Origin: Raja brachyura
Lineage: Eukaryota
Direction of reading: 5' to 3'
DNA length: 64,000 nucleotides
NCBI GenBank assembly: GCA_963514005.1
Contig: OY740814.1
Span: 6,696,001-6,760,000 of the forward strand
The first letter of the stretch is position 1. The number at the start of each line of letters is the position of its first letter. Below are positions 9,021-9,067 of this stretch, piece by piece. The position numbers and the translations under genes were made by a program. The notes beneath the pieces are model-generated. The model saw only the letters and a program-made list of their open reading frames with translations. It was not told the DNA's origin and did not search any database.

Positions 9021-9067
9021 CTCAGTACCAAAGATTATAGCTCCGCTCTATGGTCTTTGCTCAGCAC
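9021..9067. mobile_element. 31-bp transposon remnant with 8-bp TSD (P-element-like excision footprint)
   Basis: CTCAGTAC-[CAAAGATTATAGCTCCGCTCTATGGTCTTTG]-CTCAGCAC. Termini are shared with the element at 49711-50677. Confidence 0.7.

Follow-up and report, generated by a model that had tools for sequence, protein, structure and literature searches.

The 64,000-nucleotide stretch of the Raja brachyura genome considered here (contig OY740814.1, positions 6,696,001 to 6,760,000; C36:6696001-6760000 in the 2.7-Gb genome searched, G000), hereafter called the window, contains a 31-bp sequence between 8-bp target-site duplications. We interpret this sequence, with a probability of about 0.9, as the fossil scar of a DNA transposon of the P superfamily—left behind when the element was excised by a staggered cut with 3' tails of 18–20 nt and the chromosome was closed by end joining. 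Four observations carry this interpretation: the element inserted with duplication of its target, its ends are those of P elements, remnants of the same kind are heterogeneous across the genome, and their retained arms stop at a sharp limit.

The duplications and the 31-mer have the sequence and the coordinates given to them in the initial annotation, which was made from the sequence alone (Table 1). The 31-mer (9029–9059) is composed solely of two ends of a terminal inverted repeat (TIR). The annotation had expected roughly 16 nt of each TIR to be kept; instead, 12 and 20 nt are present, with base 9040 common to both arms, and the long arm terminates at offset 0 from the motif GAGC, where we place the nick. 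The annotation had also matched these ends to a 967-bp element elsewhere in the window. This holds at the level of what we call the clan, defined by the end pattern CAAAGAT...GAGC, and fails at the level of the subfamily: the 31-mer derives from a sister subfamily with the end CAAAGATTATAGAGCGGAGC, for which 18 intact ends were matched, with 2 mismatches in the 20-nt arm. The window was scanned for CAAAGA and TCTTTG separated by 0–48 nt and flanked by 8-mers with at most one mismatch. Two such TIR-only remnants were found, against none in each of 300 shuffles of the window; the second is a 12-bp remnant (50528–50539) with a perfect 8-bp duplication. By itself, the window 31-mer is without a function of its own, and the scar is inert.

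Table 1. Features of the remnant, of its surroundings in the window and of related transposase-bearing elements
Feature	Position in window	Strand	Remarks
Left copy of 8-bp target-site duplication, CTCAGTAC	9021-9028	+	Later substitution at 9026
Short arm, outermost 12 nt of the TIR	9029-9040	+	12/12 match to intact ends
Long arm, 20 nt of the opposite TIR	9040-9059	-	18/20 match to intact ends
Right copy of 8-bp target-site duplication, CTCAGCAC	9060-9067	+	
Host stretch with inverted arms, insertion target of the element	8924-9233	.	Unclassified; arms 8924-9014 and 9144-9233, 81% alike
967-bp non-autonomous P-clan element with 8-bp duplications	49703-50685	+	Element 49711-50677; duplications with 1 mismatch
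12-bp remnant between perfect 8-bp duplications	50520-50547	+	Remnant 50528-50539; nested in the 967-bp element
Transposase-bearing element L052, 4,711 bp			Perfect 8-bp duplication; THAP, HTH (helix-turn-helix) and RNase H: PF05485, PF12017, PF21787
Transposase-bearing element L064, 7,459 bp			Perfect 8-bp duplication
Transposase-bearing element L066, 6,847 bp			Perfect 8-bp duplication; N and C parts of RNase H and GTP-binding insertion: PF21787, PF21788, PF21789

The remnant's ends belong to a clan of the P superfamily, to which they are assigned because P-transposase domains lie inside elements with these ends. The P-transposase RNase H domain, PF21787, has 29 matches in the genome, around which 20 regions of 10 kb were fetched. 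In three of these regions (L052, L064 and L066), the domain is enclosed by an element that terminates in CAAAGAT and is flanked by a perfect 8-bp duplication; a fourth (L058) has enclosing ends with one mismatch each in the end and in the duplication. The THAP-like frame of L066 received no domain score in the profile search. Intact clan ends are abundant (6,799 matches genome-wide, against 1 for the control). The 967-bp element, the ends of which are complementary at 32 of 33 positions, is 78–79% identical to L066 over 245 and 480 bp and is a derivative of the L066 type. An open P-transposase frame of 700 amino acids is found in a further region, L049 (3982–6084; G000 C3:19706300-19716299). 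When compared with the PDB, it matched only the Drosophila P transposase (6p5a, E 1.4e-29), with the catalytic residues D230, D303 and E531 aligned (Drosophila numbering, PMC7776569; residues counted by hand); the same catalytic words occur in frames of L066. The L049 frame is 66–68% identical to transposase pieces within TIR-bounded elements, and in the atlas it lies next to THAP9 and P transposases. No flanking pair of clan TIRs was found around it within 10 kb; L049 is a candidate domesticated or young copy.

Insertion shows a palindromic target preference, (G/C)T....A(C/G), which is seen in the duplications of 55 scars and of 16 long elements. Once symmetrised for strand, 80% of the 55 scar duplications have T at position 2, and at position 1 the share of G or C is likewise 80%. 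The bias agrees with the GT....AC core of P-superfamily targets and resembles the P target core GTCCGGAC reported in the available text of PMC2577343.

Remnants of this kind are numerous in the genome, where end-to-end forms of 16–44 bp have 4,318 matches, against 517 for the reversed pattern used as control. We rejected 4,318 as a count of events, as many matches are copies inside other repeats. Grouped by flank, the first 50 places reduce to 27 clusters; a duplication with no more than one mismatch accompanies 15 of these, or 12 after hand merging. Extrapolation from these places leads to an estimate of about one to two thousand independent exact-ended scars. In a set of 74 fetched places, 57 flank clusters were distinguished, and in 48 of these the two copies of the duplication differ at no more than one base. 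Scar lengths range from 12 to 38 bp and are most often 22, 28 or 31 bp in the sets not selected on GAGC; the single peak at 30–34 bp anticipated by the annotation is not seen. Nor are the remnants all one identical 31-mer: sequences within 2 mismatches of it occupy 3 places genome-wide, and the 12+20 junction is found at 3 unrelated sites, each with its own duplication. Remnants of 45–74 bp are a smaller class (1,018 matches against 478 for the control). Its first 50 places span 125 Mb, and by eye only about 5 of them are bounded by clan ends at both extremities; the two that were fetched have duplications as well as inserts in which end sequence is repeated. Remnants that vary at shared sites inside P elements (22, 32, 35 and 36 bp in L065, L209, L009 and L058; 33 and 38 bp at a second such site) were left out because they may represent later decay of one scar, and the high-copy remnants examined are passengers with identical flanks. 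With remnants far above the control, with their heterogeneity, and with P-transposase domains carried by longer elements with the same ends, the annotation's central proposal of a P-superfamily excision scar is supported. Its mention of a vertebrate agrees with the host repeats, which resemble those of sharks and rays.

Two further remnants were encountered. A 48–49-bp sequence, one arm of which continues beyond the motif, has 19 copies (L280–L287 and L305–L307 among those fetched), many near contig starts, and is carried along by another repeat. The second is a scar of 40 bp (L060, 6246–6285), the duplication of which is perfect; it belongs to a further subfamily without GAGC, whose arms reach 20–22 nt.

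The position of the cut may be read from where the retained arms stop. Intact ends carry the motif GAGCAAGAT, in which GAGC ends at 18, 19 or 20 nt depending on the subfamily. The motif is present in 86 of the 92 ends of 46 long elements, with each base of AAGAT kept in 83–85 of the 86 and each A after GAGC in 83–84; the spacer differs between the two ends of one element (19/20) in 13 of the 46, and intact ends stay conserved for about 14 nt beyond GAGC. Arms were counted in 86 independent scars (85 fetched and the one in the window; 172 arms), after exclusion of clusters with more than one duplication mismatch, of L006, L315, L313 and L258, and of repeat clusters of one site; copies of a carried 35-mer at 2 of 76 places were also left out, and L208, the inner part of a 60-bp scar, was counted as listed. 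Sixty-nine arms reach GAGC. Of these, 64 stop exactly there (36 at 18 nt, 2 at 19 nt and 26 at 20 nt), 3 stop at +1 and 2 at +2, and none continues further; three of the five that end at +1 or +2 lie inside a microhomology. In the 42 scars not selected on GAGC (sets S and U), 9 arms end at GAGC, 2 at +1 and none further.

Because the terminal GC is itself a microhomology, junctions with low overlap were analysed apart. In 42 junctions the overlap is at most 1 nt; their longer arm stops at GAGC in 26 cases, short of it in 14 and beyond it in 2, and within the unselected sets 8 of 21 stop at GAGC and none beyond it. Genome-wide, 37 of the 1,727 matches whose arm reaches GAGC (control 13) run on into the following AA (control 2), whereas breakpoints distributed uniformly along the 33-bp repeat would give 84% running on. 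Nineteen of these 37 are the single 48–49-bp sequence mentioned above, and the 11 that were fetched share flanks. The junctions of the 86 scars comprise microhomology joins, blunt joins (6/86) and templated insertions, and 11 of the 86, including the window scar, belong to a class that one-base pairing would produce. Templated insertions that start immediately after GAGC and copy the opposite arm (L272, L208, L267, L245 and L303, the last copying it four times over) place the free 3' end at that position.

The fates of individual insertions can be compared at one paralogous site, a position of an abundant host repeat (L116–L205), which fits the target bias and has received at least 67 independent P-clan insertions, the 967-bp element of the window among them. 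At this position, 30 remnants of 12–38 bp have perfect duplications and many different sequences (control 0). The 67 insertions were found by their left junction alone and sorted by hand. Two-armed remnants of 12–56 bp account for 16, and in a further one the duplication is clipped; 4 are remnants with a single arm, after which the duplication follows, and 3 have lost the far flank. Two measure between 57 and 240 bp (one of them doubtful), 34 were called at 241–2,645 bp (some 4 of these doubtful), and the remaining 7 are long insertions that extend beyond the DNA fetched. Scars thus constitute 21 of the 67, and the size range above 56 bp is nearly empty. The empty state of the position (28 matches in the fetched sequence) occurs beside the full and scar states, which belong to separate insertions.

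At the window site itself, contigs from four runs (X18, X1, X5 and X11) were aligned to window positions 8300–9900. The remnant is present in one contig each of X18 (organism G, about 1% different), X1 (organism A, about 5%) and X5 (organism B, about 5%); the scar is therefore inherited by several related species. In record 14 of X11 (organism E), with 22 differences over 337 aligned bases, the pieces corresponding to 8785–9020 and 9060–9160 adjoin at record bases 101/102, and the 39 bp in between (9021–9059, one duplication and the 31-mer) are missing, as expected of an empty site. Runs X1 and X5 have C at position 9026, so that their left duplication agrees fully with the right one of the window; this indicates that the 8-bp duplication was originally perfect. 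The simplest history, on an unrooted species tree, would be insertion after E diverged and excision before the split of the window's species, G, A and B. A BLAST search of the fetched sequences for the empty site gave 12 matches, of which only the window itself spans the site. Of the two states that the annotation had proposed to look for in relatives, the empty site was found and the full element was not.

The events at the window site may be reconstructed as follows. A P-superfamily element or a non-autonomous derivative inserted there, producing the 8-bp duplication. Germ-line excision by the transposase would then have made a long staggered cut, with one strand cut at the extreme end of the element and the second, to judge from the arm stops, nicked at GAGC^AAGAT within the inverted repeat. 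The chromosome would be left with two 3' tails, identical and non-complementary, of 20 nt in the window subfamily and of 18–20 nt clan-wide, in place of the 17-nt overhangs that the annotation had assumed. In the window, the last base of one intact tail would have paired with base 12 of the other; removal of an 8-nt flap and filling of the gaps would yield 20 + 12 - 1 = 31 bp with both duplications intact. Identical tails can pair only at self-complementary words, which would account for the recurrent scars of 12, 18, 22, 28, 34, 36 and 38 bp. Repair of the polymerase-theta type is suggested by the templated insertions at sister scars.

The sequence at the nick offers a possible explanation of its position. 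The AAGAT that follows GAGC repeats positions 3–7 of the element end. This could allow the new 5' end to anneal to the transferred strand at its tip. By analogy with the Drosophila strand-transfer complex, as described in the available text of PMC7776569, such loop-back pairing would tolerate a spread of 18–20 nt. We consider it fairly probable that P transposases measure no fixed 17 nt and that the nick of this clan is set by the sequence before AAGAT, via looped-back pairing that tolerates 18–20 nt.

Other routes to a TIR-only remnant have to be weighed against excision and end joining. In aborted gap repair, the break invades the sister or a different copy and is joined after a short stretch of each end has been copied. 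The remnant would then be the smallest kind of internally deleted P derivative, with no record of the nick position. Aborted gap repair is the principal route known in wild-type flies (PMC2895639, in the text available), and long-armed remnants such as L083 (79 bp), L173 (92 bp) and the 48–49-bp clusters are what it would produce; yet it predicts a continuum of arm lengths where a wall at GAGC is observed, and at most 2 of the 67 insertions at the paralogous site measure 57–240 bp. The arm limit largely refutes this route for the main class, and we regard it as very unlikely for the window scar.

A transposase-independent deletion is extremely unlikely. The inverted repeats would form a hairpin during replication, and the polymerase would slip between short direct repeats provided by the end palindromes; the nearly precise excision of bacterial Tn10 is a comparable slippage deletion. 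Many junctions do lie on palindromic words (the 12-, 22-, 28- and 34–38-bp classes), and one such deletion occurs in an unrelated inverted-repeat family (L353). However, slippage should often retain longer arms, given that the ends stay conserved well past GAGC, and such arms are not frequent; neither does it yield blunt joins or templated insertions. The unrelated family, 13 ends of which occur within 0.76 Mb of fetched sequence, served as a control for slippage and gave 391 matches against 98. Among its first 50 places, 30 are one internal 28-mer, 13 are native ends with one substitution and 1 is an end-to-end deletion, and all 13 of the 22-mers fetched are native ends with one substitution. 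The control is weak because the family flanks DIRS-like frames and probably does not move by cut and paste. When 921 kb of fetched sequence were scanned de novo for an alternative, no hAT-like family with 8- or 9-bp duplications emerged. The annotation had also allowed for a minimal mobile unit, according to which the 31-mer and the 22-, 28-, 34- and 38-mers would move as tiny MITEs (miniature inverted-repeat transposable elements). Although the 12+20 junction recurs at unrelated sites with separate duplications, as do some lengths, such recurrence is expected from shared microhomology and is seen in several subfamilies. Moreover, the 31-mer has only its 3 places, the forms are diverse (30 remnants of 12–38 bp and 4 one-armed ones at a single site), the remnants are without the conserved AAGAT and the inner motif found in every intact end, and the high-copy remnants checked are passengers. 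A tiny MITE is thus barely credible.

Several points weigh against excision by a P transposase followed by end joining, or at least against its simplest form. The three TIR-bounded transposase elements (L052, L064 and L066) are all broken or partial. Half of the scars in the arm count (43/86) come from a search that required GAGC, though not what follows it. A minority of remnants pass GAGC: the full AAGAT is retained in 6 flank clusters (29 of the 37 places fetched), 3 of which are without a duplication, and L083 and L173 also extend past it, such that gap repair is needed in addition to end joining. After removal of overlap, 38 of the 86 scars retain more than 17 nt, beyond the 17 of Drosophila P; the chemistry is P-like and not identical to that of Drosophila P. 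The empty site is known from the single X11 contig, at a depth of 5.6, and on the unrooted tree this contig could reflect a precise loss in the lineage of organism E instead of the original empty state. Finally, the contigs of the four runs contain the empty and scar states of the orthologous site and no full-length element, and so the step from element to scar at the window locus is inferred.

Comparison with known systems is based on the accessible portions of the papers cited. Excision of the Drosophila P element leaves the chromosome with non-complementary 3' tails of 17 nt, which are joined through microhomology, blunt, in one-armed form or with polymerase-theta-dependent templated insertions while the duplications are kept (PMC2895639, Table 1). 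The clan scars share with these junctions both 8-bp duplications, the TIR-only insert, the junction classes, the one-armed products and an occasional loss of flank. They differ in that the Drosophila junctions are laboratory products of 17-nt tails, whereas the clan scars are natural, fixed, shared between species and number hundreds to thousands. They differ also in their tails, which at 18–20 nt would be set by a motif; with arms exceeding 17 nt, the clan scar is a variant of the Drosophila-type footprint. Like Drosophila P and AgaP of Anopheles gambiae (PMC1562414), the clan combines THAP, HTH and RNase H domains with a GTP-binding insertion and D-D-E residues, and it has 8-bp duplications, inverted repeats of about 30 bp and many MITE derivatives. 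Unlike either, it has new end sequences and a spacer from the end to GAGCAAGAT that varies between 18, 19 and 20 nt. In the accessible portion of the Anopheles paper, the term 'footprint' does not appear (PMC1562414).

Zebrafish Pdre2/THAP9 (PMC10983969) is likewise a case of P-like elements with 8-bp duplications in a vertebrate, and the zebrafish enzyme excises in cells. Pdre2 has about 50 copies and 13-bp inverted repeats of another sequence, as opposed to the thousands of intact end matches of the clan; the text seen describes deletions at excision sites and reports neither a nick position nor genomic scars (PMC10983969). Fossil excision events have been recovered from genomes in rice as well (PMC4423477); the rice scars consist of duplications, flank deletions or filler and require a second genome, whereas the clan scars are recognizable alone and keep the nick position. 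Hence, the type of scar in fly experiments, P-like elements in zebrafish and footprints of other superfamilies in rice are already known. A full-text literature search, with most subscription journals and Repbase outside its coverage, returned no description of natural P scars across a genome, nor of a nick positioned by a motif.

Some observations on the clan and on the window stand apart from the scar at 9029–9059. The 12-bp insert nested in the 967-bp element is present, intact or decayed, in 30 of 30 loci of the subfamily (L086–L115), which rules out an independent event in the window: it was inherited subfamily-wide from one old event. It is a scar fixed within this MITE subfamily, with one P element having entered another and left before the host was amplified. 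Two pairs of clan ends, nested and with spacings of about 195 and 144 bp, occur in a common composite element (for example G000 C1 1030170-1031253, 1046366-1047594 and 9625808-9626926; L052 at 3863 and 4007), scars are carried internally by L052, L058, L065 and L009, and self-insertion of P elements into P elements seems frequent. Elsewhere in the window, a DIRS-like retrotransposon spans approximately 31400–35800, with a tyrosine recombinase-like frame at 31960–32778 (PF00589, below the cut-off), a reverse transcriptase at 33893–34411 and an inverted-repeat end motif at 31409 and 32305. A long interspersed nuclear element (LINE) frame of 638 amino acids with endonuclease and reverse transcriptase occupies 12403–14319. 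An element of about 1.4 kb at 59159–60560 has 130-bp inverted arms (92%) and a frame (59537–59890) that is Tc1-like by eye and has no Pfam match, and two further inverted-repeat elements lie at 22490–23139, bounded by TTAA, and at 21524–22316.

The value of these findings lies in the scar population and in the nick position that it reveals, and less in the window site alone. In the literature examined, as far as its accessible text goes, the long staggered P cut has been mapped only for the Drosophila element; the scars provide sequence evidence that this P clan also cut with a long stagger, and they name the nick to the base. About a third of the insertions at the one sampled site became scars, which repeat annotation would miss. 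If our interpretation is correct, self-evident scars would allow the place of cutting to be read from a genome for any P family now extinct, and a motif-set nick would be a precise and cheap prediction for the biochemistry of THAP9-type enzymes. The scars would also constitute a natural data set for germ-line end joining: this genome would hold independent junctions of the order of a thousand, all formed from the same defined 3' tails and datable through related species.
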